Positions 27,389 to 52,433 are shown, counted from the first letter of the stretch. The stretch is DNA of 64,000 nt from Candidatus Sungiibacteriota bacterium (GCA_016201505.1 JACQCQ010000009.1:65991-129990), one strand, 5' to 3'. Notes: generated by a model from the sequence alone, not told the origin. Program-made: numbers and translations.

Positions 27389-27396
27389 AAGGTCGT

Positions 27397-30186: not shown

Positions 30187-31050
30187 TTATGGGCTGACTT
30201 CCTGGAATCCCGGAACTTTTAAGACGGTGATAAGGCTCACATTACTTGTTAAGCCATTGTAGGCCGCGGTAATATTTGCCGCTCCCACACTTGATGAAAC
30301 TGCGGTAACCAACCCTTTGCCGGCGCCATTATTTACCGTCGCTGCGGCGGTATTGTCAGAAGACCAATTGGCCGAAGCCGTTACATCCGAAGGCCCCGCG
30401 CCCCCCGGTCCATCGGGGTCATAGGTGGCGGTAAGCTGTACCGTCTGGGTGGGGTTTAAGGATTTACTAATTGGCGAAATAGTCAGCGTTGCCGTGTTGA
30501 TGACGACCGTATCGCCCGTGGTGCCTCCCGGGCCGGTACAAGAGAGCGTGTAGGATTGTGAAGCAGTTATATTGCCGGTCGACTGGCCGGGATTGGATGT
30601 GCCGGTCCAGCCGCCGGGAGAGACGGTGCAACTTGTTGCGTGAGCCGAAGTCCAGGAGAGCGTGGCCGCAGTATTATAGGTGATCACAATCGGCCCATCC
30701 GCGCCGTTCGCCTTAATGTCGGGTGTTGGCAAGGTACAATCCGGTGTGGTTATCGTCTGCGTATCGTCAATCGTATGGCCGCTGCCGGTGATATAGACCC
30801 AGATGCCGTAGTTGGTAAGCGAAAGGGGTACCGCTCCCGGCCCCCAGTCGACCGAGGTGGCTGAACAGGGTATGCCAGACCCGCAGGCGGGAGTAAAGAT
30901 GGCAGCCCCAGTCGCGTCAGTCCAGCGGGAGGGGGAGTATTGGCTGATGGCCGCGGCACTCGAATGTCCGTTTGAAAAAAATAAAACACCGCCCGCAGCT
31001 ATCAGGCCGAAGGCGAGTATCGAGATTGCGGCGACTTTAGTGCGCGACAT
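30187..31050 (-). CDS. Secreted surface protein with a C-terminal bacterial Ig-like (Big_2-like) domain
   Basis: Signal/TM MSRTKVAAISILAFGLIAAGGVLFF. Thr/Ser/Gly-rich. The ORF-track N-terminal extension to 31113 is translation of the inverted repeat. Confidence 0.7.
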   Translation of the reverse strand: MSRTKVAAISILAFGLIAAGGVLFFSNGHSSAAAISQYSPSRWTDATGAAIFTPACGSGIPCSATSVDWGPGAVPLSLTNYGIWVYITGSGHTIDDTQTITTPDCTLPTPDIKANGADGPIVITYNTAATLSWTSAHATSCTVSPGGWTGTSNPGQSTGNITASQSYTLSCTGPGGTTGDTVVINTATLTISPISKSLNPTQTVQLTATYDPDGPGGAGPSDVTASANWSSDNTAAATVNNGAGKGLVTAVSSSVGAANITAAYNGLTSNVSLITVLKVPGFQEVSP

Positions 31051-31075
31051 ATCTTCTTCGTCTATTTGGGGAGGA

Positions 31076-31194
31076 TTTGCCCGCCCGCCAGATGCCCGTG
31101 CCGCGAGGTGCAATCTTTTTCGTGAAGCACTCTATACTCTCGAATGATTGTCTACTGCGTACGACAGGCTGATGGCGGGCAGGTATATTCGCGA
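31076..31194. repeat. 119-bp inverted repeat, right copy
   Basis: See 30007-30125. Confidence 0.85.
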
Positions 31195-31198
31195 TTAC

Positions 31199-31958
31199 TT
31201 ACTCAACGGGCGGCACTTCGTGGAAATTATTTACCGGCTGGTTTACCTGAACATGCGCCGAGCCCGAGCCGTTGTTTCCGGTTACGGTGCAGTCTTGGGA
31301 AACTGTCGGGGCCAACGTCACCTGACCGTTTATAGATCCGTTGCCGAGGTCTCCCGTACAGCTGTAGATTCCCTGGCCGCATGCGGGGCATGAAAGGACC
31401 GTTGTCTGGCCTCTTGTAATGGTTGGGGGGGTAAACGAGACCGGGGCATTCCCGGGCGGCGTGCCTGGCGGTGGTGTCCCGGGCGGCGGCGGGGGGGGCG
31501 TCCCCGCGCTGCAATCCGGTGTGGTTATCGTCTGCGTATCGTCAATCGTATGGCCGCTGCCGGTGATATAGACCCAGATGCCGTAGTTGGTAAGCGAAAG
31601 GGGTACCGCTCCCGGCCCCCAGTCGACCGAGGTGGCTGAACAGGGTATGCCAGCTGTAGGAGTCACACGTGGCAGCTGACGTATCAGTCCAGTTGATGGT
31701 GATGATGGGTTGGCCATTTGAGCATGAAGTGGTGAGGGCGGAAGACCCGCAGGCGGGAGTAAAGATGGCAGCCCCAGTCGCGTCAGTCCAGCGGGAGGGG
31801 GATTTAAGGGCGCTTGCAGTTGAATGGTTGGAAAACGCCAAAACTCCGCCAGCGACAGAAAAGGCGGCAGCTATGATGAGCAGTGAAATTAATCGAGAGC
31901 GCGGCATTGATTCCATTATACCCGGTAATGAAACTTCGACAATAAAAAATGCCCACAT
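31199..31958 (-). pseudogene. Tandem paralogue of 30187-31050, mosaic and frameshifted
   Basis: Two blocks of roughly 150 and 60 bp are identical to the downstream gene (…IPCSATSVDWGPGAVPLSLTNYGIWVYITGSGHTIDDTQTITTPDC…). A 91-bp insertion breaks the frame and is unique to this copy. N- and C-termini are unique (PPPPPPGTPPPGTPPG). Confidence 0.55.
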
Positions 31959-32394: not shown

Positions 32395-33177
32395 TCACCT
32401 GAATGCTTCACTCCTCCGCAAATTTTCTTTGATAGCCGCTTTAAATTGATCGAGCCCCTGGGCCGCATCATCTTTTTGATTCCCCGGGTAGGCTTTATAC
32501 CAATCTTGGAGCGAAAGGTGATGGGCTAAATTCAGTGCTGATTCAAATGAATTTTGGGCGTCTTTTTCGCCTAAGTTTAACTCTGCCACCCCGAGCGCGT
32601 TCCAAAGCCAGGGATTGGTATCGGCGTTTGGAATCTTTCGCATCGCGAGCCGTATGGTTTCTTTGGCTTCTTTAAACTTCCCGTCTTTGGAATAGACCCA
32701 GGCCAAATCATTGTATCCCGCCCATTCAGACGGTGCCCACTCAGTAAATCTTCTAAAATTGTCTTCAGCTTTCACTAAGTCGCCCTGTGTCCCGTAAATT
32801 AATCCCCGCACGTAGAGTGTGCGTAAATTTCCGGGATTGGCTCCGAGCTCTTTCGCAGTTTCACTAATCGCCTGATCGAATTTTCCCTCAATAAAATAAA
32901 TCCGCGCCAATTGATAGTGCCCCCAAAAAATACGGGGATCAATTGTCACTGCTTTCCGGTAGGCTTTCTCGGCAATGTCTAAGTTGTATGCACCGCCGTT
33001 GAAATAATACGCCCCAATGCCCGAGGCCAACTTCGCGTCCGTTTGGTCGAGTGTAACGGCAACCTCTCCCCAGCGATGTCCCCACAGAACCCGCGCCAGA
33101 GCCGTAGCTTGCCAATATAAAATCAGCGCACTAAAAAATAAAAAAGCAATGATGTATTGCCCTGTGTTTCTATACAT
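32395..33177 (-). CDS. Membrane-anchored TPR-repeat protein
   Basis: N-terminal TM then TPR motifs (AEKAYRKAVTIDPRIFWGHYQLARIYFIEGKFDQA...). Confidence 0.8.
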   Translation of the reverse strand: MYRNTGQYIIAFLFFSALILYWQATALARVLWGHRWGEVAVTLDQTDAKLASGIGAYYFNGGAYNLDIAEKAYRKAVTIDPRIFWGHYQLARIYFIEGKFDQAISETAKELGANPGNLRTLYVRGLIYGTQGDLVKAEDNFRRFTEWAPSEWAGYNDLAWVYSKDGKFKEAKETIRLAMRKIPNADTNPWLWNALGVAELNLGEKDAQNSFESALNLAHHLSLQDWYKAYPGNQKDDAAQGLDQFKAAIKENLRRSEAFR

Positions 33178-33213
33178 AAGTATCTTTGCGTTGAAGAACA
33201 CAGTAATAGGGGA

Positions 33214-33555
33214 TTACAGTCTGTCTCTCAACATCATAGGAAAACAGTAGCGCTGAATAATCAGCGAACAGTAGCAAAAATTAAGACCCCCATAACATTT
33301 CGGACACTCCCAATGTTCGGCGTACGCATAGGGTTTCGGGTCCTTTTTCAGAACATCAACAACCATATCGCCTATGTGACATTTTACAACACCGGTTCGA
33401 TGGGCAATGTCCAGTTCCTTCTTTCGGAAAAGCGGAATTTTGCCGAAATAGTGGCCCCCTCGATATCTGCCGCCCTTATACTGTGTGAGCCAGATATCCC
33501 TCGTACATATTGAGCATTTCTTTATAGATCGTTTCTTGATTTCTTTATATGCCAT
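33214..33555 (-). CDS. Hypothetical Cys-rich protein (zinc-ribbon-like)
   Basis: CSICTRD...CPKCYGG. Its fragment is duplicated at 34838-35035. Confidence 0.45.
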   Translation of the reverse strand: MAYKEIKKRSIKKCSICTRDIWLTQYKGGRYRGGHYFGKIPLFRKKELDIAHRTGVVKCHIGDMVVDVLKKDPKPYAYAEHWECPKCYGGLNFCYCSLIIQRYCFPMMLRDRL

Positions 33556-33634: not shown

Positions 33635-33862
33635 TCACAAATAATTCGAAAACTGTTCGGGAGTAAACTCTATTTCGCGTAAAATCTGACGCAATAATCC
33701 GCGGCCTATGTCCTCGCCTCCGTGTTTCGGCACAAGCGTCGTTCTCCCGTCCGGATGCTGAAAGAAAATGTGTGAACCGCTCTGACGCACTTTCGTAAAG
33801 CCGATGGAATATAAAACGCGCATGAGATCGCGCGCCTTCAGCATCCGCACCTTTTTGCTCAT
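33635..33862 (-). CDS. hicA: HicA mRNA-interferase toxin
   Basis: LMRVLYSIGFTKVRQSGSHIFFQHPDGRTTLVPKHGGEDIGRGLLRQIL. Confidence 0.85.
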   Translation of the reverse strand: MSKKVRMLKARDLMRVLYSIGFTKVRQSGSHIFFQHPDGRTTLVPKHGGEDIGRGLLRQILREIEFTPEQFSNYL

Positions 33863-33869
33863 GATCTAT

Positions 33870-34124
33870 CTATATGGTAACCACCTCCATTCCCACGAAC
33901 GCCGGTTCATACGCGAACCATTTAATTCTCTTCCGGTACAACGGATTTATTCTTGTGACCTCGAGTGAGAGACGAATCGCGTCGCGGACTCGTTCTCGGA
34001 GCTCATTCATTGTTTTTGCCTGGGTTGAACATCCCGGCAATGCAGGAACCGACGCAACAAAATAGCCGTCTTCGTCGTGCTCGACTACAACTTTAAATTG
34101 ATTTTGCGAGAATCTCTTATTCAT
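33870..34124 (-). CDS. hicB: HicB antitoxin
   Basis: VVVEHDEDGYFVASVPALPGCSTQAKTMNELRERVRDAI. Confidence 0.85.
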   Translation of the reverse strand: MNKRFSQNQFKVVVEHDEDGYFVASVPALPGCSTQAKTMNELRERVRDAIRLSLEVTRINPLYRKRIKWFAYEPAFVGMEVVTI

Positions 34125-34231
34125 AAAACCCGAAGATAGATATTATACAATCTACCGTATTAATGGTCAGAAATCAATCATCCGGCATCATCCAATATCA
34201 ATACTCTAATCTTTCTATAAAGTCTTTTACC

Positions 34232-34330
34232 CCTCACGCCAGAAAGCTCCGTTTGTAAAGACGGAGACGAATAGCTAAAAAACGCGAAGTAGAGGCCAGA
34301 AAGCCATGAGTGTACACCCGTAGTGTGGGA
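34232..34330. repeat. Second copy of the approximately 95-bp repeat
   Basis: See 20228-20325. Confidence 0.5.
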
Positions 34331-34357
34331 GTTTACGAGAATTTGCGCCCCAGCATT

Positions 34358-34645
34358 TCAACCCAAATAAATCCGTGCCAGCTGATAATGCCCCCACAAA
34401 ATCTTCGGATCAATCGCCACCGCTTTTTTGTAGCCTTTTTCTGCGAGATTTAAATCATACGCCCCGCCGTTGAAGTAATAGCCGCCAATTTGAGAGGCAA
34501 GTTTAGCGTCTTTTCTATCAAGCATTATGGCAATTTGTCCCCACCGATGATGCTCCCAGGCTATTTCAGCGAGTGTAGTGCCTACAGAATACAAAATCAA
34601 CGCACAAAAAAACAAAACAGCAACAATAGCGTGCCAAGATTTCAT
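34358..34645 (-). pseudogene. Truncated paralogue (N-terminal 95 aa) of the TPR gene 32395-33177
   Basis: MKSWHAIVAVLFFCALILYSVGTTLAEIAWEHHRWGQIAIMLDRKDAKLASQIGGYYFNGGAYDLNLAEKGYKKAV aligns residue by residue. Confidence 0.5.
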
Positions 34646-34746
34646 CCCGTTAGAGAATTAACGAGTAACTTTATGGCAAGTTTAATGTCTCTATGTGTCG
34701 TGAGCCTCATTTTGAAATACAGCCCCGATTAATTCTCTAACGGGAT
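34644..34746. repeat. MITE-like element with ATCCCGTTAGAGAATTA TIRs (perfect 17-bp)
   Basis: atcccgttagagaatta ... taattctctaacgggat. The start codon of the truncated TPR paralogue lies in the TIR. Confidence 0.6.
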
Positions 34747-34837
34747 TCATCCATTCACGATCGCGTCTGCCTGCTCGCCTCGCTGGAGCTTTGGCGAAGC
34801 GGGCTGGCAGAGCTTCTAATTGGTATTCATAAAAAAA

Positions 34838-35035
34838 TTAAGATCCCCAATAACAAACGGGGTATTCCCAATACTCGACGTACGCATAGGGTTTCGGATC
34901 CTTTTCCAGAACGTCAATAATCATAGTGTCTAGGCGGCGTTTGATCGCGCCGGCACGATGGACAATGTCCAATTCCTTCTTTCGGAAAAGCGGAATCTTG
35001 CCGAAATAGTGACCCCACGGTATCTGCCATCGCAA
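34838..35035 (-). pseudogene. Fragment paralogous to 33214-33555
   Basis: HYFGKIPLFRKKELDIVHRAGAIKRRLDTMIIDVLEKDPKPYAY compared with the full copy. Confidence 0.4.
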
Positions 35036-35134
35036 TACTTACTGTATGAGCTGGATATCCCCCGTGCATATTGAGCATTTCTTAACAGATCGCTTCTTGA
35101 TTTCTCTTCTCACCATAAAGAAGATGATACTGAC

Positions 35135-35395
35135 TCAAGAATACAAGTTACTATGCTTATCGATAATGGTAAACTCAACAGTAGTCTCATCGAGAGTTTT
35201 ATAGAAAGCACGGAAATCGCCAGTGACATTGATACTGCGGAAATCCCGCCACTCACCATGGAGAGCATGATTGTTGAGTGTCGGGTTAAAGGGATCAGCC
35301 ATAAATAGCCGAAGCCTTTTCTTGAATTTGTTTCTTACCGATACCGGAAGTTTTTGATAGTTTTTATCAAAATTCTTATGAAAGAGAACTTTCAT
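35135..35395 (-). CDS. RelE/YafQ-type toxin
   Basis: FDKNYQKLPVSVRNKFKKRLRLFMADPFNP...GDFRAFYK. Confidence 0.8.
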   Translation of the reverse strand: MKVLFHKNFDKNYQKLPVSVRNKFKKRLRLFMADPFNPTLNNHALHGEWRDFRSINVTGDFRAFYKTLDETTVEFTIIDKHSNLYS

Positions 35396-35667
35396 AGTCG
35401 ATCAAGGTACTGAAGTGCTTCTTTATGGGTGAACGGCCCACGAGCATTCTTCCTGCCCCTGATGTCTTTTATAATTTGCATAAGCAGTTTCTGGGTGCGT
35501 CTGTTCGGTACCGGAGGCGCTGAAAAAATAACCCGCTTTTCCCGTATGAATTCCTTAAGATAGGCGTTAATAATGGTTCCCAACGGAAGTCCAAGCTCCC
35601 GTGCCGCCAGCTGCGCTTCTTCCTTAAGCTTTTTGTCGGTTTTTATATTCAGCAGTATTTTTTCCAT
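35392..35667 (-). CDS. RelB/DinJ-type antitoxin
   Basis: LLNIKTDKKLKEEAQLAARELGLPLGTIINAYLKEFI. Overlaps the toxin by 4 nt. Confidence 0.8.
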   Translation of the reverse strand: MEKILLNIKTDKKLKEEAQLAARELGLPLGTIINAYLKEFIREKRVIFSAPPVPNRRTQKLLMQIIKDIRGRKNARGPFTHKEALQYLDRL

Positions 35668-35816
35668 ATATCCATAATATATACTTTGGTTGTATTTCCC
35701 GTCAATGGTATAGACTGAACCAAATTCAAATTCACGCGGCTTCGGCGAGTGTCGTGCGTAGAGAATACGAAACTGATGCGCCGAAAAATAAAATCACAGT
35801 AAGTAACTGCCAGATC

Positions 35817-36104
35817 TTAGGCATAGGTGTCCTCTCTCCTGAGTCCGCAGTAGTGGAAACTCACTCCACGGTCTTTAATATCATAGCGAAAACGAAGACG
35901 TCCCAAAGACAGCCTCCACCGTCCTTCGCCCTGGGGGATATCGATAAGTTTTTTGATCGCGTAATGATGTGTTTGGTTATACGGATCAGTCTCAAGGATG
36001 CCGATTGCACGAACGTAGATGCCTTTTACCTCCGGGTTACGCTTTATAAGCGCACGAAGCAGGCGCTCAAAATGAGGGGTAGCGGAAACTAAAAAAGACG
36101 GCAT
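35817..36104 (-). CDS. RelE/ParE-family toxin
   Basis: RWRLSLGRLRFRYDIKDRGVSFHYCGLRR. Confidence 0.8.
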   Translation of the reverse strand: MPSFLVSATPHFERLLRALIKRNPEVKGIYVRAIGILETDPYNQTHHYAIKKLIDIPQGEGRWRLSLGRLRFRYDIKDRGVSFHYCGLRREDTYA

Positions 36105-36110
36105 GGGTCC

Positions 36111-36392
36111 TTACCGTTTGATCTTTCTTTCTAGAGAAGGAGAAAGCTCTGCCAAAATTGCCCGAGCCGGACGAGCTTTGCCCGCCAGATATTCTTTTCG
36201 GCTCACTTCAATGTGAGCTTTCACTTTGGGATCTCGTAGCTCGAGATAATCCTCAAACTCGTCAATATCCATAACACCGGCAACAGGGATACCATCCTTT
36301 TCTAAAATTATATATTCCTTGTTTAGATGTACCCGCTTGATAATAGCTCCAAGATTAATCCGGGCTTTTGTAAGTGGGAGACGCTGCACCAT
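36111..36392 (-). CDS. Phd/YefM-family antitoxin
   Basis: LPLTKARINLGAIIKRVHLNKEYIILEKDGIPVAGVMDIDEFEDYLEL. Confidence 0.8.
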   Translation of the reverse strand: MVQRLPLTKARINLGAIIKRVHLNKEYIILEKDGIPVAGVMDIDEFEDYLELRDPKVKAHIEVSRKEYLAGKARPARAILAELSPSLERKIKR

Positions 36393-36564: not shown

Positions 36565-37293
36565 CTAGTGCCCAATTGCTAGTGTATAAATTAGTGATTC
36601 GTTAACCCCATCAATATTAAGAAGCCTTTCTAGGCTCTCATCTCTTGTGCCCACTAAGGCACAACACTTTAACCCAAGTACATTCGTGGTCAAATATACG
36701 TTTTGACCAATGTGTCCGCTCTCAATAAATATATAGCGATAACCCCTTTCCCCATATTTATTTTGTGTTCTCCAGAAAACCGCGCTCATTAACAAGACCA
36801 CACTGGCATTTTTTACCCACGGATATGTGAAATACGAGTCAATTTCAGCATCAGTAAATTCTCGTTGTTCTAGTATGTCGAGTTGGTGTGTTTTTACATT
36901 ATAGTGATATAGACCAGCGATAATATCTTTACTCGGGCGAAAGATCAGAGGATATATCTCAATAGGGAATCTTCCACCTGCAGATGGTTGTGCCCGAAGT
37001 GGTTGGTTGTCCCTAATGCCATTTTCTCCACAGGAATGCTTAAGTAATACTGAAAGCTCATGAAGCATAATTGGCTCTCGATTAAAATCACGGCGTGATC
37101 TTCTTTGTTTTATCAGATCGAAAAAGTCTGCCCTAAGAGAAATGTTTGCAAGGTCGATTTTAGGTAAGCGGGGGTATGATTTATAGTATATTGTTTTCCA
37201 TTCATCGGGCCATTCTTCAAAAGGAATTGGTGGGTGGCCTTTGGCATGATCTTTTGATGATGAATGGAAGAGGCGAGAAAAATCCGAATTCAT
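36565..37293 (-). CDS. SagB/ThcOx-type dehydrogenase (nitroreductase superfamily)
   Basis: PSAGGRFPIEIYPLIF...GLYHYNVKTHQLD...ESGHIGQNVYL is characteristic of SagB-type FMN dehydrogenases. Confidence 0.7.
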   Translation of the reverse strand: MNSDFSRLFHSSSKDHAKGHPPIPFEEWPDEWKTIYYKSYPRLPKIDLANISLRADFFDLIKQRRSRRDFNREPIMLHELSVLLKHSCGENGIRDNQPLRAQPSAGGRFPIEIYPLIFRPSKDIIAGLYHYNVKTHQLDILEQREFTDAEIDSYFTYPWVKNASVVLLMSAVFWRTQNKYGERGYRYIFIESGHIGQNVYLTTNVLGLKCCALVGTRDESLERLLNIDGVNESLIYTLAIGH

Positions 37294-37467
37294 ATCAACA
37301 CATTATATCTCAACGCATATTGGTTCCAAAACATTAGAGCTTGCTGTCCCCCTCTCAAGCACTTGACAAATTCATTTGCAGGATGTATATAAATAATACA
37401 GGAACTTAATAGGTTATTTGGTCCTTATACCAAGTCGCTCTAATCCTCGAGACTGGAGAACAGAGCA

Positions 37468-37740
37468 ATGATAAAGATACTGTTCTTGGTGCTCTCAATC
37501 TCGGCAGTGGTAGGAGGCGAAGTCTTCGGTCAGGAGACAGGACGTGTTGCTAGCCCGATCGTCGCCACAAGGTCAGATCTTGCGACAGAAAGGGCTATCA
37601 GTGAGGGTCTCAATGCAATCTGCCACGATCGGGGCAGAGGATTTCATTGGGATGGAGAAAAGTGCAACCCTATCAGCGAGGATGCGAGAAAGATCATGAG
37701 AGGGGATATCGAACACCTCAACCAGCCGCCGCTCTTCTAG
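37468..37740 (+). CDS. Small secreted protein (GC-richer segment)
   Basis: Signal peptide MIKILFLVLSISAVVGG, two Cys. Confidence 0.45.
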   Translation: MIKILFLVLSISAVVGGEVFGQETGRVASPIVATRSDLATERAISEGLNAICHDRGRGFHWDGEKCNPISEDARKIMRGDIEHLNQPPLF

Positions 37741-37775
37741 AATGTGACGTGGACCCCGGAAGGAGTAGAGTTCCT

Positions 37776-38393
37776 ATGAGACAAACTCTGTCGCCGGCGA
37801 TTTTCTTAGCCGCCGCCGTACTTCTGACGTCGGCTCCTACGGCCGTTGCGCAATCAGAGGCGCCCCCACCCAATGTGAAAGTTGTCCCATCTCCCAGTCC
37901 AAATCCGGGGAGTTGGTGGCTTCTGGAAACCCCAAGTGGGAGCCTCAAGATCGAGCTTTTGTCGGTTGACGCGAGTAAGTTCGTAGCACGAGTAGGAGAA
38001 CGGCAGGTTCCCTATACTAGGGAATGGAACATGCTGGTGGGCGTCGGAAGAACTGGCGCACCAGTGGACTACAATCCTCACTTGCGTTCGCTTTCCTTTC
38101 CTCTGTGGGAGGGAAAGCGCTGGGGCGGAGTCGTCTGGTGGACAGCTGGACCCGAAAGCGGTTCGTTCTCTGTCAACGCGCAGGCGAAGAAGTGGGAGCG
38201 GATTGGGGTCTTGGCAGGGACGTTCGAAGCGCTGCGTGTCGAGACCACTACTTCAGGGGCACAGCTCAATTTCTGGCTGAAATGCTGGTACGTGCCTGAA
38301 GTTCAGCGCTTCATCAAGTGCGATTCCAACAACGCCAGGTTGCAGTTCGAGCTCTCGCAATACGGCCTTGTTGGTTCAACCGCAAGTCAGTAA
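37776..38393 (+). CDS. Secreted hypothetical protein (GC-richer segment)
   Basis: MRQTLSPAIFLAAAVLLTSAPTAVAQS signal peptide. The ORF track starts earlier, at 37647. Confidence 0.5.
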   Translation: MRQTLSPAIFLAAAVLLTSAPTAVAQSEAPPPNVKVVPSPSPNPGSWWLLETPSGSLKIELLSVDASKFVARVGERQVPYTREWNMLVGVGRTGAPVDYNPHLRSLSFPLWEGKRWGGVVWWTAGPESGSFSVNAQAKKWERIGVLAGTFEALRVETTTSGAQLNFWLKCWYVPEVQRFIKCDSNNARLQFELSQYGLVGSTASQ

Positions 38394-38458
38394 GTCAGGG
38401 AACCATTGATGTAAAGACCAACGGTCCGAGGCATAACCTTGGACTGTTTTATTTGATC

Positions 38459-39463
38459 CTAACTAAAGACAGTGTACATTTTTAATATGCCCGCACCTAC
38501 TCTCATTAAGAGAGAGTCGGGAACGAGATGGAGCGTATTCTCTACGTCATTTTTGGTTGATCGCGTTGGCTTAGCGACGAAATCGTGAATTCCGTTTGAA
38601 CAAAGTTTGAATGCCACGAGACAGCCGCCATGTATCCTGGTCGTTTTGTAGTAATAATCGGAGGGATTTAATATCTCGGCGAGTTTCGGGTCATACAGTA
38701 ACGCGCCCAAGCTGTAAAAAATTAATCCATCCCTATACCTTTCAATTAGCTGCATTCCGTGCGGCTGATGTCCGACGACAATATTCGCTCCATAATCAAT
38801 TGCTAGTCGGTAATACATTTTTTGATGTTCGTCAGGGAAGAAAGAAAATCCCGCATAAACGTTTCCGACTGTGTGCAGCGCGACAATGACAATGTCAGAC
38901 GATACTCTCGCTCGTTTTATCGCACCGGAGAGGTGCTCCTTTGTTAACGACGCTACGCCGCTTTTTCCTTGTGCTGGATGCATATTCTCGTCCAGCAGGT
39001 CGGTCTGTGCTAAAAAAGACACCCGAAGATTTTGAAGGTTAACTACCTTCGGCATGAAAGCCTCATAGTTATCTTCTCCTATTCAGATGAAGTCAATTTT
39101 TTCGGTTTTTAACAAATTAAGGCATTCCTCGAGTGCAGTTCTGCCATAGTCAAAACTATGGTTATTCGCAAAAGATAAAATATAACGGCGATCCCCCCTG
39201 AACAAACTAAAAATCGCTGGGTCAGATCGAAAAAGAAACTCCTGGTTCCCGTTTCTTCTTGGCTGGCCGCCACGGGAAATGACGCCCTCGTAATTAAGAA
39301 ATATTACGTCACTTTTTTCTATGGTGTCTCGAAACTTTCCCCATATAGAATTGTGATCAATCTTGGACACCCCCCTACTAGTTTCCGTATTAAAAATCAA
39401 ATCACCGCCGACTAGAACGGTTCCTTGATATTGACATGCCGTATGTTGAAATATCTGCATCAT
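38459..39463 (-). pseudogene. CapA/PGA_cap-family metallophosphatase homologue interrupted by one in-frame TGA
   Basis: LVGGDLIF...SFANNHSFDYG...KIDFI-TGA-IGEDNYEAFMPKV...VIVALHTVGNVY...IVVGHQPHGMQ. The two ORFs 39083-39463 and 38459-39055 are in the same frame. The stop is at 39083-39085. Confidence 0.6.
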
Positions 39464-39465
39464 TG

Positions 39466-39885
39466 TTATATGGGACGTGGCCGATACCTAGTAAGGTATA
39501 GAACATCAGTTATTTTCCACGCGCCATCTTTACCACGATGGTAATGAACCCGATACATATTGCTTGCCCTCGTATCATTCTGCTGTATTATCTCGAAGAT
39601 TCCTTGCACCGTAGCTTCATCCTCGCTCGCCCGTATTACCGCATTATCCATTTTTGCCGTCTTTAAATTTGAAAGGGTGTTGCTTAAAATTACACTATAC
39701 TCTTCGGTGCCAACCCTTTTATTAACAGTGAGAGAATCTACGAACGCGCCTTCTTCGAAACTCGCTATTATATGTCCAATATCTCTCCGGTTGTAGGCTT
39801 CCAAAAAGTCGGTCATCAGATTCGCGATTTCTTTCTCCCGAAGTGTCGCAGGCTTTTTGTAAAATCTAATAAGTTTTTCTAACAT
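39466..39885 (-). CDS. NTF2/SnoaL-like fold protein
   Basis: 139 aa. EAYNRRDIGHIIASFEEGAFVD pattern, with a conserved His/Asp-rich C-terminal half. Confidence 0.5.
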   Translation of the reverse strand: MLEKLIRFYKKPATLREKEIANLMTDFLEAYNRRDIGHIIASFEEGAFVDSLTVNKRVGTEEYSVILSNTLSNLKTAKMDNAVIRASEDEATVQGIFEIIQQNDTRASNMYRVHYHRGKDGAWKITDVLYLTRYRPRPI

Positions 39886-39974
39886 TTGGGTAATCTTTCA
39901 ACAAAAACCTCGCCAGCTTGATGCGCGGCGTAAGCATAATTTACATTAAAGAATGAAGTCTCTTTAACTCTCCT

Positions 39975-41099
39975 CTATTTATATTTCACTAGCTCGCTAG
40001 TAACTAGCTCCTTTTCCAAATAAAGGCTAACCCAGCTATCGCCTGTTTTAGCCGCATTCTCGAGAGCTGCTTGAGCCTTTTTCTTCTCGCCGGTCTCAAA
40101 ATAAGCAAGGGCTAAAACTCTCCAAGGGGACGCGAAGGCTTTAAGCATCGTCGGATCGCGAGGCCATCCCTCTGCTGGTTCATTAAGATCGTGATCTATT
40201 GGTATCACGTTGTTTTCAAGTTGGCTGATAGCTTCTTTATATTGTTTTAATGCTGTCAGATACATACTAGCCGACGTATTTGCTAGAATCCGTGCGGCAG
40301 GGTGCAGCTTCTGAAAACCCAGACTATTTATTACATCCATCCATTTCTTGAGCAATCTTTGTGTTATATCAGGATTAATCTTAGCTCCTCTAATATTGAT
40401 GGTATCGTTTTCTGATGACAGTGCCTCGTTCCACTTTGCAAGAGTATTTTTTATGTCAGTATCGTCCATGATACTAAGCCGTGCCGGGTATGGTTTCGAG
40501 TGATCTGGTCCCACGATCAGAGATCTTATTTGCGCTGAAGGGGTTACTACGAGACCCATAACCGGATGTGGGAAAAACCGGCCTGACGGTATGAGGTAGT
40601 TACTACCCAGACTTGTTTGATGGACAATAATTTGCTTTTGACTTTCCAGAGATCCAACGATAACTCCATAATATCCACCACCTGGTCTCAGGGACGGGCT
40701 ACCATTCATAATAGAGACAATAATTGGCGTACTCGAAGATTGATTCAAGAAATTGCGAAGACCCCTTTGATTCTGTAGTGTAACAATTTTAGCTTCATAT
40801 CCCTGACTTTCAAAGAATCTTTTGAAATCGGTGAATGTAAAATTTCCCCTAGTCGTTTCAGCGGGCAAGGTTCTTTTGAGATCTAAAAATGATAGCCTTT
40901 TATCGCCCCAATATCGGAGTATCATCGCCGCCGTCGACTCAACATCATACGCTAGCGGCGTTCCGGAGAAAGTGCCGAAATAAGGAACACCGAGAATAAT
41001 ATTATCAATGGCGCGGGTGGATAATGAATAATAGAAAACACCTAAAACTACCAGCCCAATCAGTAGAGCAATTGAGGTGAGTTTCGTCCTGCGCGTCAT
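39975..41099 (-). CDS. Membrane-anchored peptidase-C39-like (apparently inactive) plus TPR-like domain protein
   Basis: N-terminal TM. C39-like core (…AAMILRYWG…PIIVSIMNG…GGYYGVIVG) lacks the catalytic Cys/His. C-terminal helical repeats. Confidence 0.55.
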   Translation of the reverse strand: MTRRTKLTSIALLIGLVVLGVFYYSLSTRAIDNIILGVPYFGTFSGTPLAYDVESTAAMILRYWGDKRLSFLDLKRTLPAETTRGNFTFTDFKRFFESQGYEAKIVTLQNQRGLRNFLNQSSSTPIIVSIMNGSPSLRPGGGYYGVIVGSLESQKQIIVHQTSLGSNYLIPSGRFFPHPVMGLVVTPSAQIRSLIVGPDHSKPYPARLSIMDDTDIKNTLAKWNEALSSENDTINIRGAKINPDITQRLLKKWMDVINSLGFQKLHPAARILANTSASMYLTALKQYKEAISQLENNVIPIDHDLNEPAEGWPRDPTMLKAFASPWRVLALAYFETGEKKKAQAALENAAKTGDSWVSLYLEKELVTSELVKYK

Positions 41100-41120
41100 A
41101 GAAGTTTATACTTAAGTATT

Positions 41121-41375
41121 TTAGAAAACGGTACAGCAATCGTTACCACAGCCAGAGCCAGTAGAACCCTCAGAGCCAGTAGAACCCTCAGAGCCAGTAG
41201 AGCCGCCGGGGTCAACATAAACATCCGCCGAAGCATGATTGGTTAAGGAGTTACCGAGAGCAAGTTCTTCACCACCTTGTTTTTTGCCGCTAAAAATATT
41301 TTGACCAACAGAAATCAAAGCTAGGGCAATTGCGAACAAAACCAGCTTTGAAATGTTTCTGAGAAAGTGGGACAT
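41121..41375 (-). CDS. Small protein with signal/TM segment, (GSTGSE)n tandem repeat and C-terminal Cys-rich tail; candidate RiPP precursor
   Basis: MSHFLRNISKLVLFAIALALISVG...GSTGSEGSTGSEGSTGSGCGNDCCTVF-stop. Directly downstream of the YcaO gene on the same strand. Confidence 0.55.
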   Translation of the reverse strand: MSHFLRNISKLVLFAIALALISVGQNIFSGKKQGGEELALGNSLTNHASADVYVDPGGSTGSEGSTGSEGSTGSGCGNDCCTVF

Positions 41376-41447
41376 CTTTGTCCATAGTATAGCAAAAATA
41401 ATTTCTGACAATCAAGCTATATTCACAATCAGTTTTGGTTACTGTTA

Positions 41448-43016
41448 CTATGGAAAAGGGTGCGGAAAAGTGTTGAATTTTCTCTTAATCTGATAGCCCA
41501 GTTTTGGCAGGACTGTTCTAAGTCTCGAGGCTCCCAAGGGTGCAAAAGTTTCGTTAAGGTATAATGGGACTAATTCAGGCACCACAACCTGAGTTACATT
41601 ATAACCCAATTCATGGTTTAAGAAATAATCGCGAACCTCAAATCCGTAAACTTCGTAGCCTATTCCCAACGACTCGACCCTTTTGACCAAGAAGTTTAAT
41701 TCATCACGAGTTGTCGCAAAGCTTCTTGGAAAATCAAAGCGGACTTTTTGAATATCCTGGGCATGTCCTTCAAGGAAAAAAGCAATGTGTTCGCGCATCT
41801 TTGGGTTAGCCCAAAGATGCAAACGTTCTTCTTGACCTAATGAAGGGTCACCAAACGGCCTATAATTATCAGCTAACTCATATACGGGATGACTGTCTTT
41901 CTTAGATCGGAGACTATAATAAACTCCCCAAGCTTCTTCATATGCCTTTGTCGCCGCGATTTCTGGATTTGCGTGACAGCCACCCCCCATTGATAAGTAG
42001 GGCCCCACCCAGGATTCATCTAGAATGATCGCAACAAAACTGGGCGGGCCTATGTCGAGTGTTGTGTTTAATATGTGACACTTGAATCTGCATCTTTGCA
42101 CTTGGAGTATTGAACTCCTCAAATCTTTGTTGAGAGACGAAATATCAATTTGTGGCGGAGAGATTCTATTAAGCCAGAAAATGAGAAAGGCATCTCTTTC
42201 AATAAGTTCATATAAACCCGCCAGCATTGCCCCCTCTCGATTAAACATCCCCCCGCTACCATTTGTATTTGGCTCTCTAAGAAATACTTCTGGTATGTCC
42301 CCGCTGATGTAGTTCCAAAAGATTAGCTGTGCGGGCAGCATGGTTTTTTGTCCTGTAGACACTCGAACACCTTGAACCCAGTGAAGTCTATGCTCTGGGG
42401 TCCAAGCAAAACGATTTGATTGATTTTGCTGTTCCTCCGAGAAACTCACCAACTTCTTAGGATCTAAAGCCCGGGCTCTTCTGTTCAAATCTACATAAGA
42501 ATTCGTCACAAAATTTTTTCTACTGTACTTAGTCAAATAATATCGCTCCAAAAATTCCCCGATACTTTTACTAACCATACTAATTAAGTCTTGACCGGAG
42601 CTATGTCCGAATGTACGAACAATTTTTCTCCCATCAGTATTATATGTATCATCAATGGATGGAGTTATATCAATCCGACTGAATGCTGGAGAGTCGTTAA
42701 AACGGCGGTGGTCTATGAATACGTCTTTGACAAGTCCACGCTCCTTTAATTTTCTAATAATTTTTATAAACGGACGTAGGGATTCCTCATATTTATTGAG
42801 GATTGCATAGGAAGTCCTTTCAGAAATTTTATCAAGGTCTTTATACAACCTTGATAATATCCTCTTCTCGAAAGAATTGCTCTCCAGATCGTAGAAACTT
42901 GCTGTCAAAGAATTCTGTCCCGGCCCCCCTGCATCGAAATATTCGGACATTAATACAAGCCCATCATAATCAAGCGGCTGGTAGAGACTGAAGTCTTGTT
43001 CTTTTGGTGTGCTCAC
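41448..43016 (-). CDS. YcaO-domain protein (ATP-dependent cyclodehydratase/amide-activating family)
   Basis: TNGSGGMFNREGAMLAGLYELIERDAFLIFWLNRISPPQID is the signature YcaO ATP-binding region. 522 aa with an approximately 170-aa N-terminal extension. Confidence 0.85.
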   Translation of the reverse strand: MSTPKEQDFSLYQPLDYDGLVLMSEYFDAGGPGQNSLTASFYDLESNSFEKRILSRLYKDLDKISERTSYAILNKYEESLRPFIKIIRKLKERGLVKDVFIDHRRFNDSPAFSRIDITPSIDDTYNTDGRKIVRTFGHSSGQDLISMVSKSIGEFLERYYLTKYSRKNFVTNSYVDLNRRARALDPKKLVSFSEEQQNQSNRFAWTPEHRLHWVQGVRVSTGQKTMLPAQLIFWNYISGDIPEVFLREPNTNGSGGMFNREGAMLAGLYELIERDAFLIFWLNRISPPQIDISSLNKDLRSSILQVQRCRFKCHILNTTLDIGPPSFVAIILDESWVGPYLSMGGGCHANPEIAATKAYEEAWGVYYSLRSKKDSHPVYELADNYRPFGDPSLGQEERLHLWANPKMREHIAFFLEGHAQDIQKVRFDFPRSFATTRDELNFLVKRVESLGIGYEVYGFEVRDYFLNHELGYNVTQVVVPELVPLYLNETFAPLGASRLRTVLPKLGYQIKRKFNTFPHPFP

Positions 43017-43187: not shown

Positions 43188-43427
43188 ATGACGCAAAAAG
43201 TATTGAAAGTTGGCTCTTCGGCGGCGGTGACGATTCCCAAAAAGTCTTTAAAAGAACTGGGGCTTAAAATCGGCGATGAGGTTCAGGTGGATGTGGATCA
43301 GCGGAGGAAGTTGGTTTCAATTACTCCTGCCCAAAATCTCTCCAAGGAAGACTCTAAAATTGCAAAATTGACACTTGCATTCATCGAGAGATACCGAAAA
43401 GACTTAGAATCGCTCGCCGATAAATAA
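43188..43427 (+). CDS. AbrB/SpoVT-fold antitoxin partnered with Doc
   Basis: MTQKVLKVGSSAAVTIPKKSLKELGLKIGDEV. Confidence 0.7.
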   Translation: MTQKVLKVGSSAAVTIPKKSLKELGLKIGDEVQVDVDQRRKLVSITPAQNLSKEDSKIAKLTLAFIERYRKDLESLADK

Positions 43428-43817
43428 GTGAAGTATTTACGATACTCACAGATTTTTCTGATTCATTCAATGATGATTGATGAAACAGGTGGCAGTCACG
43501 GCGTGAGAGATTCTCATGCAATTTTAAGTTTGGAACATTCTCCGAGGCAAAAAGTATTTGGGAAAACACTCTATCCTTCAGTGTACCAAAAGGCCGCGGT
43601 GTATGCGCGAGCTATCATTATGGAGCATCCATTTATTGACGGAAATAAGCGGACCGGCATTTCAGCAGCCAGTATTTTTTTGGAGAATAATGGTTACCAA
43701 CTCATTGCCAAAGAGGGCGAACTTGAGTCGTTTGCATTGCGAATTGTGGATCAAAAATATGGAATAGCAGAAATTGCCGGCTGGTTTCGCAAGAACTCAA
43801 GGAGAAATAAAAAATAA
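43428..43817 (+). CDS. doc: Doc (death-on-curing) Fic-family toxin
   Basis: Fic motif HPFIDGNKRTGISAASIFL. Confidence 0.85.
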   Translation: MKYLRYSQIFLIHSMMIDETGGSHGVRDSHAILSLEHSPRQKVFGKTLYPSVYQKAAVYARAIIMEHPFIDGNKRTGISAASIFLENNGYQLIAKEGELESFALRIVDQKYGIAEIAGWFRKNSRRNKK

Positions 43818-43838
43818 ATTTTATCCCAGGCGAGTAGT

Positions 43839-43870
43839 TTATTCTCATATTCTTGAGAATATGAGAATAA
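43839..43870. repeat. AT-rich perfect palindrome P (variant) at a cassette boundary
   Basis: ttattctcatattct-tg-agaatatgagaataa. Related to 45304-45339 and 45969-45998. Confidence 0.6.
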
Positions 43871-43911
43871 CGCTATGCTTGGTAAGCTTTTAGAACTAGA
43901 TTCTCGAAGAG

Positions 43912-43965
43912 GGGCAAGTTTTGTTTAGGGGACAGATTTCGCACCTGGGAGAGCGGGTGGTGCGG
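43912..43965. repeat. Decayed copy of the nth 3' terminus (remnant C2)
   Basis: gggcaagttttgtttaggggacagatttcgcacctgggagagcggg. Confidence 0.8.
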
Positions 43966-44041
43966 CTGAACATGTTGGCGCAATAAAGGGCGAGAGTCCC
44001 AGCGGCTTGAATGTATACTAATAATATACTAATCTTTACAC

Positions 44042-44149
44042 ATGACGCAAAAAGTATTGAAAGTCGGCTCTTCGGCGGCCGTTACGATTTCCAAAAAATC
44101 TTTGAAAGAGCTCGGTCTTAAAATCGGCGCAATATTAACATATGATTGA
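44042..44149 (+). pseudogene. Truncated copy (35 codons) of the Doc-partner antitoxin gene
   Basis: First 31 codons are identical to 44667-44897, then it diverges to a stop. Confidence 0.5.
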
Positions 44150-44160
44150 CTCATATTATT

Positions 44161-44385
44161 ATGAAAAGCATCATACAATTTCATATTCATAGGGGTGAAA
44201 CCCACTATATTGCGGAGGGAGTTGATTTACCGGTCGTAACTCAAGGGAAAACCCTAGATGAGCTCGCCGCGAATCTCAAAGAGGCGGTTGCCTTGCAACT
44301 CGAAGGAGAGAACCCGGCTGATTTTGGTCTGACGTCGAGTCCTTCTGTTTTGGCAAATTTCGAACTTTCCGAGATTCGTGCCTAA
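44161..44385 (+). CDS. hicB: HicB antitoxin
   Basis: YIAEGVDLPVVTQGKTLDELAANLKEAVALQLEG. Confidence 0.8.
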   Translation: MKSIIQFHIHRGETHYIAEGVDLPVVTQGKTLDELAANLKEAVALQLEGENPADFGLTSSPSVLANFELSEIRA

Positions 44386-44623
44386 ATTGAGAATTCTTTC
44401 AGGGCACGATGTTGTTGCGATCTTAGAAGGCCTCGGTTTTTCTGTGGTTGCCCAAAAAGGCAGTCATGTAAAATTGCGCAGAACTGTTGAGGGTGGAACA
44501 AAGCAGAGCCTCACAATCCCGCTACATGCCGAGATGGATAAATGGACGCTCAAAGCGATTTACACGCAAGCTTCTCGGTATATTCCCGAAACTGAATTGC
44601 GAGAGCACTTCTATACCAAGTAG
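44378..44623 (+). CDS. hicA: HicA toxin
   Basis: ILEGLGFSVVAQKGSHVKLRRTVEGGTKQSLTIPLHAEM. Confidence 0.85.
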   Translation: MPKLRILSGHDVVAILEGLGFSVVAQKGSHVKLRRTVEGGTKQSLTIPLHAEMDKWTLKAIYTQASRYIPETELREHFYTK

Positions 44624-44666
44624 GTGCGTAGGAGTTTAGATTATATTAATTTCATCTGTACACGTT

Positions 44667-44897
44667 ATGACACAAAAAGTATTGAAAGTCGGCTCTTCGG
44701 CGGCCGTTACGATTTCCAAAAAATCTTTGAAAGAGCTCGGTCTTAAAATCGGGGATGAGGTGCGAGTGAACATTAATCACAAAGAAAAGCTTGTGATTAT
44801 TGAGCCGGCGCATCAAGTGAAAAAGGAATTGCTTGATTGGACGGAGCAGTTTATTAAAACCTACCGGCCGGCCTTGCTCGCGCTCGCGAAAAAATGA
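44667..44897 (+). CDS. AbrB/SpoVT-fold antitoxin (second copy)
   Basis: Paralogue of 43188-43427. Confidence 0.7.
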   Translation: MTQKVLKVGSSAAVTISKKSLKELGLKIGDEVRVNINHKEKLVIIEPAHQVKKELLDWTEQFIKTYRPALLALAKK

Positions 44898-45286
44898 CCC
44901 GATATCTGGATCCCGAGGAGATGCTCGTGATTCACGCGAAGATTATAGACGAAACGGGTGGACTCCACGGCGTACGAGATATGAACCTATTCGCCTCGAT
45001 TGCCGGGCGGCCGAAAATGCAGTTTGGCGGGAAAGAATTATATCCCTCGGTATTTGAAAAAGCAGCGGCATATTTTGAGTCTACTGCCTTTCATCATGTC
45101 TTTGTGGATGGAAACAAACGAACGGCAATCGCCATAGCTGCTCGTTTTCTTTTTCTCAATGGATACGACCTAACAACCTCAAATAAAGTTCTGGAGAGGT
45201 TTGTGCTTGGTACAGTCACGAAGAAATCTAATTTAAAAATCATCGCATTGTGGTTTCAAAAACATTCAAAGAAAATCAGAAAGTAG
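44894..45286 (+). CDS. doc: Doc toxin (second copy)
   Basis: HHVFVDGNKRTAIAIAARFL. Confidence 0.85.
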   Translation: MTRYLDPEEMLVIHAKIIDETGGLHGVRDMNLFASIAGRPKMQFGGKELYPSVFEKAAAYFESTAFHHVFVDGNKRTAIAIAARFLFLNGYDLTTSNKVLERFVLGTVTKKSNLKIIALWFQKHSKKIRK

Positions 45287-46807: not shown

Positions 46808-47497
46808 TTATGTCTTTGCCGACGGACAGATTTTGTTTAAGGGACATATCACGCACTTGGGGGAGCGGGCCTGGCAGACGGCGCGGCCGTGATCGATGAA
46901 AAGCGTGTTGACTTTGGGCCACATTTCTTTTTTGTCTTTATAAATCTCCATTAAATCTTTTTCGATTTTATTGGGGTCGTCATGTTTGGTGAGTCCCAAG
47001 CGCTGGGAGACGCGGCGGACGTGGGTATCAACGGCTATGCCGCCAATAAGCTCATGAACATTCCAAAGCACGATGCTCGCCGTTTTTCGGCCAACACCGC
47101 GGAGCGTGATTAAGTCCTCAATTGTTTTGGGAATTTTCCCGCCAAAGTTTTTTTCGATAAGTTTTGCCGTCGCGATAATAGCCTTCGCCTTTGTTTGGTA
47201 TAACCCAATGCGTGAAATTTCTTTGCTAAATATTTTTGGATTAGCATTGGCAAAGTCTTTCGGTGTTTTGTATTTTTTGAATAGTTCAGCCGTGACAATA
47301 TTTACCATCTTATCAGTCGCTTGAGCCGATAAAATAACCGCCGCCAGCATCTGCATCGGCGTTTTGTAAAGAAGCGCGGTCTTTGATTCGGGGTTTAATT
47401 TGTCGAGACCGGCTAAAATCTTGGCCGCCCGCTTTTTCTTTTCGGCCGGAGATTCCTTTTTAATCCAATTTTTCCTATACTCGTTGTATTGTCCCAT
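46808..47497 (-). CDS. nth: Endonuclease III
   Basis: HhH-GPD (LRGVGRKTASIVL) and C-terminal 4Fe-4S loop CQARSPKCVICPLNKICP. The ORF track extends it to 47509. Confidence 0.9.
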   Translation of the reverse strand: MGQYNEYRKNWIKKESPAEKKKRAAKILAGLDKLNPESKTALLYKTPMQMLAAVILSAQATDKMVNIVTAELFKKYKTPKDFANANPKIFSKEISRIGLYQTKAKAIIATAKLIEKNFGGKIPKTIEDLITLRGVGRKTASIVLWNVHELIGGIAVDTHVRRVSQRLGLTKHDDPNKIEKDLMEIYKDKKEMWPKVNTLFIDHGRAVCQARSPKCVICPLNKICPSAKT

Positions 47498-47696
47498 GTT
47501 GGTTGCCACTAAAATTTACTCCATCAATGAAATCGTGCCTGTCTCTGGCAACTACATCTGCGTCCCTTGTGGCTATGTGCAGTATTTTGAAGCGGGGGAC
47601 AAGTTCATTGAGTGCCTTGCCTGTCTCGCGGGGACTCTCTATGGCCCGGCCGGGTTTCAGAGTCCGGCAGATGAGTTTTGGCAGTTTGTCGGCTAG
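47496..47696 (+). CDS. Small zinc-ribbon protein
   Basis: YICVPCGYVQYFEAGDKFIECLAC. Start inferred at the second Met. Confidence 0.35.
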   Translation: MLVATKIYSINEIVPVSGNYICVPCGYVQYFEAGDKFIECLACLAGTLYGPAGFQSPADEFWQFVG

Positions 47697-51575: not shown

Positions 51576-51579
51576 CGTT

Positions 51580-51700
51580 AATTTCTAGATCCTAATTTCT
51601 AAATCCGAAACAAATGCCAACGCACAAAATCCCAAATTTAGAACTTTTGAATTTAGAATTTGTTTAGAGTTTAGGATTTCGTGCTTAGGATTTTGAACCT
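51580..51700. repeat. Approximately 115-bp AT-rich intergenic repeat (copy 1; copy 2 at 59318-59430)
   Basis: tcctaatttctaaatccgaaacaaat ... ttttgaatttgtttagagtttaggatttcgtgcttag is shared almost verbatim. Confidence 0.6.
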
Positions 51701-52417: not shown

Positions 52418-52433
52418 ACTTCTGAAAAAATAC

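Follow-up and report, generated by a model that had tools for sequence, protein, structure and literature searches.

A predicted azol(in)e-peptide locus with a membrane-anchored precursor-like protein in Candidatus Sungbacteria

Bacteria of the Candidate Phyla Radiation (CPR, or Patescibacteria) have tiny genomes with, to our knowledge, almost no recognised secondary metabolism. A 64,000-nucleotide stretch of DNA from Candidatus Sungiibacteriota bacterium (GCA_016201505.1 JACQCQ010000009.1:65991-129990; hereafter the window, with positions counted from its first letter) encodes a YcaO-domain protein, a short protein with a Gly/Ser/Cys tail and a SagB-type flavin mononucleotide (FMN) dehydrogenase in one neighbourhood. 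Is the short protein a precursor peptide that these enzymes modify? On balance we favour a positive answer, in which the locus would be a system resembling those for thiazole/oxazole-modified microcins (TOMMs) or linear azol(in)e-containing peptides (LAPs), the small peptide would be the substrate of the YcaO enzyme and azol(in)es would form on it. Judged by its sequence, the cluster is real and probably working, and systems of this type are widespread in CPR bacteria. The source organism belongs to Candidatus Sungbacteria, the YcaO protein being 100% identical to one annotated from a Candidatus Sungbacteria metagenome-assembled genome.

Co-occurrence of the peptide, YcaO and dehydrogenase genes

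The cluster genes lie on the minus strand and encode the YcaO protein, the small protein, a membrane protein, an NTF2-like protein, an interrupted CapA-like protein and the SagB-type dehydrogenase. This inventory, drawn up in a first-pass annotation of the locus, was confirmed by open reading frame (ORF) calls and by Pfam and NCBIfam profile matches, with small corrections. The features that carry the argument are the following, the repeat having been located with Tandem Repeats Finder (TRF).

41448..43016, minus strand: YcaO-domain protein, 522 aa, predicted ATP-dependent cyclodehydratase (Pfam YcaO, 2.8e-51)
41121..41375, minus strand: precursor-like small protein, 84 aa plus stop (family present in 48 of 76 YcaO loci)
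41153..41201, minus strand: 18-bp tandem repeat in the small-protein tail, encoding (GSTGSE)n (TRF)
39975..41099, minus strand: single-pass membrane protein, 374 aa (N-terminal helix, C39-like and TPR-like parts)
36565..37293, minus strand: SagB-type FMN dehydrogenase, 242 aa, predicted azoline oxidase (TIGR03605)

A pattern scan of one genome per species recovered 73 loci encoding relatives of the YcaO protein. With two loci from metagenomes and the window itself these made 76 non-redundant loci, designated here by L and a number, and the ORFs within 7 kb of YcaO were clustered. Nearly all come from Patescibacteria (Saccharibacteria and the Adler-, Kaiser-, Morani-, Pacei-, Lipton-, Lloyd- and Sung- groups), and a few from bins labelled Myxococcales, Bdellovibrionales or Rickettsiales. 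The recurrent gene order is SagB, YcaO, small protein and a membrane protein of ~375 aa. A SagB-type gene is present in 63 of the 76 loci and adjoins YcaO in 53, while members of the small-protein family occur in 48 loci (51 genes), 24 of them directly downstream of YcaO. After most of these genes (42/51) comes the gene for a helical protein or for one homologous to the 374-aa membrane protein of the window. In a reverse test, a profile of the leader only was run against a collection of 5.8 billion proteins, and five matches from contigs outside the 76 loci were inspected; each of the five has a YcaO and a nitroreductase gene no more than 6 kb away, and three come directly after YcaO. Whether YcaO homologues co-occur with such peptides had been set beforehand as a check on the proposal, which would have fallen had they never done so. 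Both searches show that they do.

The YcaO assignment is secure, as the first-pass annotation had it: the 522-aa protein matches Pfam PF02624 at 175.2 bits against a cutoff of 25.7. When a profile of 25 family members was compared with the PDB, the closest relatives were the azoline-forming MusD, TruD and LynD (5e-31 to 1e-27), followed by an archaeal thioamidation YcaO (1.6e-24) and, distantly, by McbD (2.6e-07). The GE..ER motif is invariant across the family alignment. The C-terminus, PHPFP (PxPxP; 41451..41465), corresponds in the alignment to TruD's NPTPMPF; across the family P518 and H519 never vary, and conservation of P520 and F521 is 90% or higher. A PxPxP C-terminus is a motif of azoline-forming YcaOs. 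At the other end of the protein, residues ~1-145 (42582..43016) form a family-specific extension of ~140 residues. Searched against 1.84 billion representatives, a profile of this extension matched 115 clusters, always at the N-terminus of proteins of ~500 aa, and neither a structural relative nor a leader-binding domain was detected for it. On these matches the extension is specific to this YcaO clade, and it is the best candidate, as yet unproven, for substrate recognition by the enzyme.

The dehydrogenase, too, is what it had been taken for, a SagB/ThcOx-type enzyme, scoring 130.6 bits with TIGR03605 against a cutoff of 78.4; its PDB relatives are 3eo7, CyaGox, BmdC and McbC. Its Lys179-Tyr180 pair (36754..36759) is conserved among homologues, with K in 60/64 and Y in 63/64. 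Alignment offsets suggest that this pair is equivalent to K201/Y202 of McbC, where Lys201-Tyr202 is the catalytic pair (PMC6395948). The kinship of the YcaO protein with MusD, TruD and LynD, its PxPxP end and the Lys-Tyr pair of the dehydrogenase together support the azol(in)e-type (TOMM) logic proposed at the outset.

The small ORF (41375..41121) begins 72 bp downstream of YcaO, and an upstream TTG at 41411 would lengthen its product to 96 aa. The ORF and its position directly downstream of YcaO had been described correctly; its length had been given as 85 aa and is 84 aa plus the stop. The protein reads MSHFLRNISKLVLFAIALALISVGQNIFSGKKQGGEELALGNSLTNHASADVYVDPGGSTGSEGSTGSEGSTGSGCGNDCCTVF and its C-terminal end is ...GSTGSEGSTGSEGSTGSGCGNDCCTVF. 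It has a positively charged N-terminus, a membrane helix encoded at 41292..41345, an A-S-A-D motif at 41223..41234 and a Gly/Ser/Cys tail at 41124..41225, in which Cys codons at 41148-41150 and 41133-41138 specify Cys76, Cys80 and Cys81. The (GSTGSE)n linker reported earlier is indeed encoded by an 18-bp DNA repeat (41153-41201), a perfect array of 2.7 copies (100% identical, TRF score 98) that specifies GSTGSE units.

Relatives of the small protein were collected with a hidden Markov model built from the small proteins themselves, and 39 sequences entered the leader alignment. The family leader opens with a Lys/Arg-rich N-terminus, followed by a hydrophobic helix (~18-20 residues) and a spacer whose length varies from 12 to 37 residues around a median of 20, and ends in an A-x-A-D motif that is invariant in the alignment and commonly reads AHAD-V-P; the rest is conserved as features rather than as sequence. 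The 12 residues that precede the helix carry a net charge of +3.2, against +0.4 after the helix; an N-terminus-inside topology is favoured in 39 of 41 members. Beyond A-x-A-D the tails are of low complexity, about 17-100 residues long, and consist of 33% Gly, 20% Ser, 9% Cys, 9% Ala and 8% Asp. Cys is present in 33 of the 36 short tails, and the residue before it is mostly Gly (47 cases) or Ser (33 cases). Identity within an Adlerbacteria subfamily stands at 80% for the leaders and 63% for the tails. Such a pairing of conserved leader and variable core typically marks the precursors of modified peptides. Short internal repeats similar to the one in the window are common in the tails of relatives, which fits slippage-driven variability.

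Some family members are larger, at 240-300 aa, and carry a Hint/bacterial-intein-like domain (C...VHN):

L001 9551-10366
L079 7119-7841 (minus)
L049 3484-4272 (minus)
L066 3771-4619
L068 2134-2949
L071 1939-2757
L072 9134-10039

The domain follows a Gly/Cys-rich segment in some of these proteins and in others lies between the first A-x-A-D and a second 'IPTASADD' that precedes the tail. Self-cleavage by the Hint domain could release the tail or rejoin it, and true splicing is conceivable in L049, where a Ser follows HN. That a Hint domain flanks the tail in some relatives suggests that release of this segment matters.

The 374-aa membrane protein encoded after the small protein has an N-terminal membrane helix preceded by Arg/Lys. 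It models as a C39-like papain-fold domain (~40530..41012) and a C-terminal TPR-like domain (~39978..40460); as the protein database holds only two relatives, this model rests on three sequences. Pfam gave no C39 match at E up to 0.01 and only weak C-terminal TPR matches, a profile search of the PDB returned TPR matches only, and a metagenome scan for relatives found nothing. The protein has zero cysteines and therefore cannot be a cysteine peptidase. The first-pass description of an inactive, peptidase-C39-like protein thus stands, the likeness being one of modelled structure. In L001, L007 and L043 the peptide gene is immediately followed by a homologue, and in L079/L080 a homologue lies beside it. 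In most other loci the slot after the peptide is held by an all-helical membrane family of ~376 aa (35/76 loci), to which a ~388-aa family (13 loci) is related (hhalign 97%). Homology between the 374-aa protein and these ~376/388-aa helical proteins was rejected (hhalign probability at most 13%). By analogy with the HlyB domain, the 374-aa protein may bind the peptide outside the membrane rather than cleave it. The two features flagged early on as atypical, a membrane segment in the peptide and a C39-like protein lacking the catalytic Cys, are real, and both are family traits.

A possible pathway and its rivals

We propose the following route. The 84-aa protein would be the substrate, with the charged N-terminus, helix, spacer and A-x-A-D serving as leader and the hypervariable Gly/Ser/Cys tail as core. 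In the cytoplasm, the YcaO enzyme would use ATP to cyclodehydrate Cys76, Cys80 and Cys81, and possibly Ser/Thr residues, to azolines, and the SagB-type dehydrogenase would oxidise the azolines to azoles. Lacking an E1-like partner, the YcaO enzyme would recognise its substrate through the 140-residue N-terminal extension. The leader would then insert in the membrane with its N-terminus inside, placing the modified tail outside the cell. There the membrane-anchored C39-like/TPR protein, or in most relatives the helical ~376-aa protein, would bind the tail and not cut it. The tail may be freed by cleavage at or near A-x-A/D by an enzyme encoded outside the cluster, or it may stay tethered on the cell surface.

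Several observations weigh against this route. With the tail predicted to lie outside and the enzymes in the cytoplasm, modification must precede insertion. Profile searches found no E1-like, Ocin-ThiF-like or RiPP (a peptide made by the ribosome and modified after translation) recognition element (RRE) partner, either within the window or encoded by a conserved neighbour; canonical TOMM synthetases are defined by an E1-like partner, which is absent here. The best NCBIfam model for the YcaO protein, the SagD cyclodehydratase TIGR03604, scores 190.1 bits, below its trusted cutoff of 219.25. Three of 41 family tails have no Cys. Beside the closest YcaO relative, a 498-aa protein (L078 446-1942, minus strand) opens with the family leader (membrane helix ... 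NPARADVPGGGGGDGSGG) and continues past it into a large globular part, so the leader is not restricted to short peptides. The A-x-A site lies ~20 residues from the helix, far for type I signal peptidase, unlike the A-V-A of the locus's own secreted protein (described below), which directly follows the hydrophobic segment; at that distance, cleavage of the small protein at A-x-A-D is a hypothesis only. Finally, the cluster in the window may be partly decayed, given its toxin-antitoxin insertions, interrupted CapA-like gene and split paralogue.

Some of these observations are also what one would expect if the small protein were an ordinary secreted or surface-anchored low-complexity protein of a family peculiar to CPR bacteria, made up of a signal-anchor, an A-x-A-D processing site and an acidic Gly/Ser linker, and the enzymes acted on something else, such as the Cys-rich surface proteins nearby or a housekeeping protein. 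This explanation survives best among the rivals, unlikely as we hold it to be. The same leader and a Gly-rich linker head both the 498-aa L078 protein and the 240-300-aa Hint proteins, several family tails are without Cys, and no leader-binding domain was detected. The TPR, Cys-rich/PKD/Big_2, ~376-aa helical and C39-like neighbours, moreover, are all N-terminally membrane-anchored and look extracytoplasmic. An ordinary surface protein, however, is hard to square with a peptide-YcaO adjacency that is tight in both search directions, with a tail like that of microcin B17 in which Gly or Ser precedes Cys, with a YcaO of the azoline-forming type ending in PxPxP, and with an azoline-oxidase-type partner in 63 of the 76 loci.

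Alternatively, the peptide could be the substrate and the backbone chemistry another, namely thioamidation or amidine formation. YcaO enzymes that work free of an E1-like partner are known for amidines and thioamides. Membrane-anchored rhodanese (sulfur-transfer) genes, sometimes in triplicate, occur in nine related loci, and the second-best NCBIfam match of the YcaO protein is the McrA thioamidation type. That match reaches 72 bits, however, against 190 for the SagD model, and azoline-forming enzymes account for both the PxPxP end and the nearest matches in the PDB. SagB-type dehydrogenases, which have no known role in thioamidation, are found in 63/76 loci; TfuA was not found, and rhodanese is absent from the window. 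We consider such chemistry quite improbable.

Azol(in)e formation on the small protein, the reading we prefer, would have consequences beyond this locus. Azoline-forming YcaOs would be able to work without an E1-like leader clamp, by means of a new recognition domain; bacteria would offer a case of a modified-peptide precursor whose leader is a membrane anchor; and the family tails would amount to a natural set of microcin-B17-like sequences, of interest for antibiotic or surface functions. As the module is kept in many CPR lineages with tiny genomes, it is probably important for their episymbiotic lifestyle. With only three or four genes, the system is directly testable by heterologous expression. 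A bolder and rather doubtful extension, which we offer tentatively, is that these loci form a distinct CPR class of azole peptides. In such a class a small membrane protein would be the precursor, a partner-less YcaO would act through its own N-terminal domain, general insertion machinery would take the place of a transporter, and a dead C39-like or helical protein would be the receptor. The product would be displayed on the surface or released, by Hint in some lineages, with a role toward host cells or competitors.

Neighbouring genes and the state of the window's copy

The system reaches past the 36565-43016 interval first assigned to it. The TPR gene (33201..32395) and the Cys-rich/Big_2 proteins (31958..30187) are conserved neighbours in other loci, where 45/76 loci encode a membrane-anchored TPR protein (~265 aa), usually paired with a Cys-rich surface protein, and a Cys-rich/PKD-like surface protein of ~317 aa follows the TPR gene in 31/76. 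The remaining features of the region are these:

39466..39885, minus strand: NTF2/SnoaL-like protein, 139 aa (sub-threshold Pfam matches)
38459..39463, minus strand: CapA/PGA_cap-family frame, broken by TGA at 39083..39085 (PF09587 on both halves)
37647..38393, plus strand: secreted protein (homologues near YcaO in six other loci)
34358..34645, minus strand: truncated duplicate (95 aa) of the TPR-gene N-terminus, among toxin-antitoxin modules
32395..33201, minus strand: membrane-anchored TPR protein, 268 aa, conserved accessory gene (tblastn and Pfam TPR)
30187..31958, minus strand: two paralogous membrane-anchored Cys-rich/Big_2 surface proteins (weak homologues of the ~317-aa Cys-rich family)

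An ORF for the NTF2-like protein is present as annotated (39885..39466), and its family assignment draws on Pfam scores that fall below threshold (SnoaL_4, 23.4 bits against 24, 6.4e-05; SnoaL_2, 22 against 27). A homologue directly follows YcaO in L078, whose YcaO is the closest relative (46% identical), and was not found in the other loci. The CapA homologue with an in-frame TGA is likewise as first described, a single frame (39463..38459) broken by one TGA (39085..39083) that parts two PGA_cap halves (positions 1-110 and 123-252), both matching PF09587. An alternative genetic code was rejected, since 11 of 39 long ORFs terminate in TGA and no internal TGA occurs in the frame of the 522-aa YcaO. 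TGA is therefore an ordinary stop in the window and the CapA-like gene is interrupted rather than recoded, probably as a pseudogene or through an assembly error. It is weakly MslH-epimerase-like, with a model score far below cutoff, and has no counterpart in the other YcaO loci.

Two secreted-protein genes lie on the plus strand at 37468..38393, between the CapA-like and SagB genes. A 248-aa ORF from TTG 37647 overlaps a 90-aa secreted-protein ORF (37468-37776 region). Since homologues are ~206 aa long, translation probably begins at the Met of MRQTLSPAIFLAAAV... near 37776, which would give a protein of ~205 aa with a signal peptide ...TAVA/QS. Homologues lie near YcaO in L009, L026, L038, L055, L073 and L081. 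These plus-strand genes had been called GC-richer. Their GC content, 0.47-0.50, is the window average, and it is the YcaO operon that stands apart, as the AT-richer part of the region (0.41-0.44). Nor does the locus adjoin an nth array, as had been supposed: a single nth gene was seen nearby (47509..46808).

The window's TPR protein matches its L033 homologue (tblastn 4e-69) and the Pfam TPR family. One Cys-rich/Big_2 paralogue (31113..30187) is intact at 308 aa; the other (31958..31199) is split into overlapping ORFs of 138 and 172 aa, probably by a frameshift. Toxin-antitoxin pairs lie between the TPR and SagB genes (HicAB, 33635-34124; a YafQ/ParE-like toxin and partner, 35135-35667; Phd and a toxin, 35817-36392), and two MazE-Doc (Fic) pairs flank YcaO on its other side, the whole set occupying 33635-36392 and 43188-45286. 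A segmental duplication (33000-33555 and 34358-35035) has left the TPR N-terminus and a small Cys-containing ORF in two copies with HicAB between them; the duplicated small ORFs (33214..33555 and 34838..35035) share GHYFGKIPLFRKKELDI....

The operon encodes neither an active leader peptidase nor a dedicated exporter. Possible exporters stand 7-10 kb from the cluster, an ABC-2 type transporter (26555-28874, minus strand) and an HlyD-like protein with a MacB-type ABC pump (50049-53784, plus strand). A MacB-type pump is also found near YcaO in L081; conserved linkage of these pumps to the cluster was not established. Type IV pilus assembly genes (a PilB-like ATPase, a PilC-like platform protein and PilM) lie elsewhere in the window (4666-8830). 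Promoter and terminator scans gave counts at or near chance.

Three further gene families recur in related loci and are absent from the window. An AMMECR1-domain protein of ~640 aa is encoded directly upstream of YcaO in 17 loci, and the C-terminal half gives weak squalene-cyclase/thioester-domain-like (alpha/alpha toroid) matches. The 'second YcaO paralogues' that seemed to lie upstream of YcaO in ~17 loci were a clustering artefact and are really AMMECR1-domain proteins. A fusion of a phosphoribosyltransferase with a PQQ/BamB-like beta-propeller (~550 aa) is present in 28/76 loci and often neighbours the SagB-YcaO pair. The membrane-anchored rhodanese genes occur up to three in tandem. Examples are:

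~640-aa AMMECR1 protein: L005 5945-7882; L007 5834-7762; L011 5486-7447; L063 2828-4765; 13 further loci
Phosphoribosyltransferase-propeller fusion: L072 15031-16686; L012 4194-5960; 26 further loci; also L082, L084 and L085
Rhodanese: L017 4445-6040; L023 4069-5567; L029 10763-12280

The core genes are intact and the periphery is worn. That the window holds a decaying, non-functional remnant of a CPR cluster, as the premature TGA in the CapA-like gene, the split Cys-rich paralogue, the truncated TPR-gene duplicate, four toxin-antitoxin modules between cluster genes and the missing AMMECR1-toroid and phosphoribosyltransferase-propeller genes might suggest, is in our judgement highly unlikely, because the YcaO, peptide, C39-like, SagB, TPR and one Cys-rich gene are full length with motifs intact and the damaged or missing genes fall outside the core module.

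Relation to known systems

CPR clusters of this general type are already on record as bioinformatic predictions. Sharrar et al. 2020 (mBio, PMC7298704) describe an antiSMASH 'LAP' cluster in a Microgenomates genome, comprising genes for YcaO, a nitroreductase and a peptidase plus a putative precursor of 84 aa; across 93 CPR genomes they count 110 clusters like it, with the nitroreductase adjoining in 89. The likeness to our loci extends to YcaO with an adjoining nitroreductase, an annotated peptidase and a putative precursor of ~84 aa beside YcaO, in Parcubacteria and Microgenomates. The passages of that paper devoted to these clusters (PMC7298704) stay at the antiSMASH level, and do not mention a membrane-anchored leader, A-x-A-D, the lack of an E1-like protein, a cysteine-less C39-like or helical partner, the TPR and Cys-rich genes or Hint fusions.

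Among characterised systems, microcin B17 offers a parallel for the core and the enzymes. The tails of the family resemble its core in composition and Cys context, the McbA core being rich in Gly, Ser and Cys, with Gly before Cys and Ser. It likewise combines a YcaO (McbD) with a SagB-type FMN dehydrogenase (McbC) bearing a Lys-Tyr pair, and its leader peptidase is encoded outside the cluster (PMC6395948). In contrast, nothing here corresponds to McbB, the E1-like leader clamp with an RRE; the relationship to McbD is remote (2.6e-07); the McbA leader is soluble and 26 residues long, whereas ours contains a membrane helix; and the operon has no McbEFG-type exporter or immunity genes. Among solved structures, the YcaO domain is nearest to TruD, LynD and MusD, C-terminal Pro-rich motif included, but these carry an N-terminal E1-like and RRE region of ~400 residues where this family has an unrelated extension of 140. 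YcaO enzymes can also act standalone, without an E1-like or Ocin-ThiF partner, as in bottromycin biosynthesis. Bottromycin clusters are not known to include a SagB-type dehydrogenase in this kind of partnership or a membrane-anchored precursor, and no sequence relationship to the present family was established.

The 374-aa protein recalls the C39-like domain of HlyB and the C39 domains of peptidase-containing ATP-binding cassette transporters (PCATs). Unlike these, it is free of any ABC transporter fusion; a single N-terminal helix anchors it, its predicted orientation is outward, TPR repeats follow and Pfam gives no C39 match. The anchored leader, the partner-less YcaO with an N-terminal domain of its own and the pseudo-peptidase together make this an uncharacterised variant of a system type that CPR bacteria are already predicted to possess.

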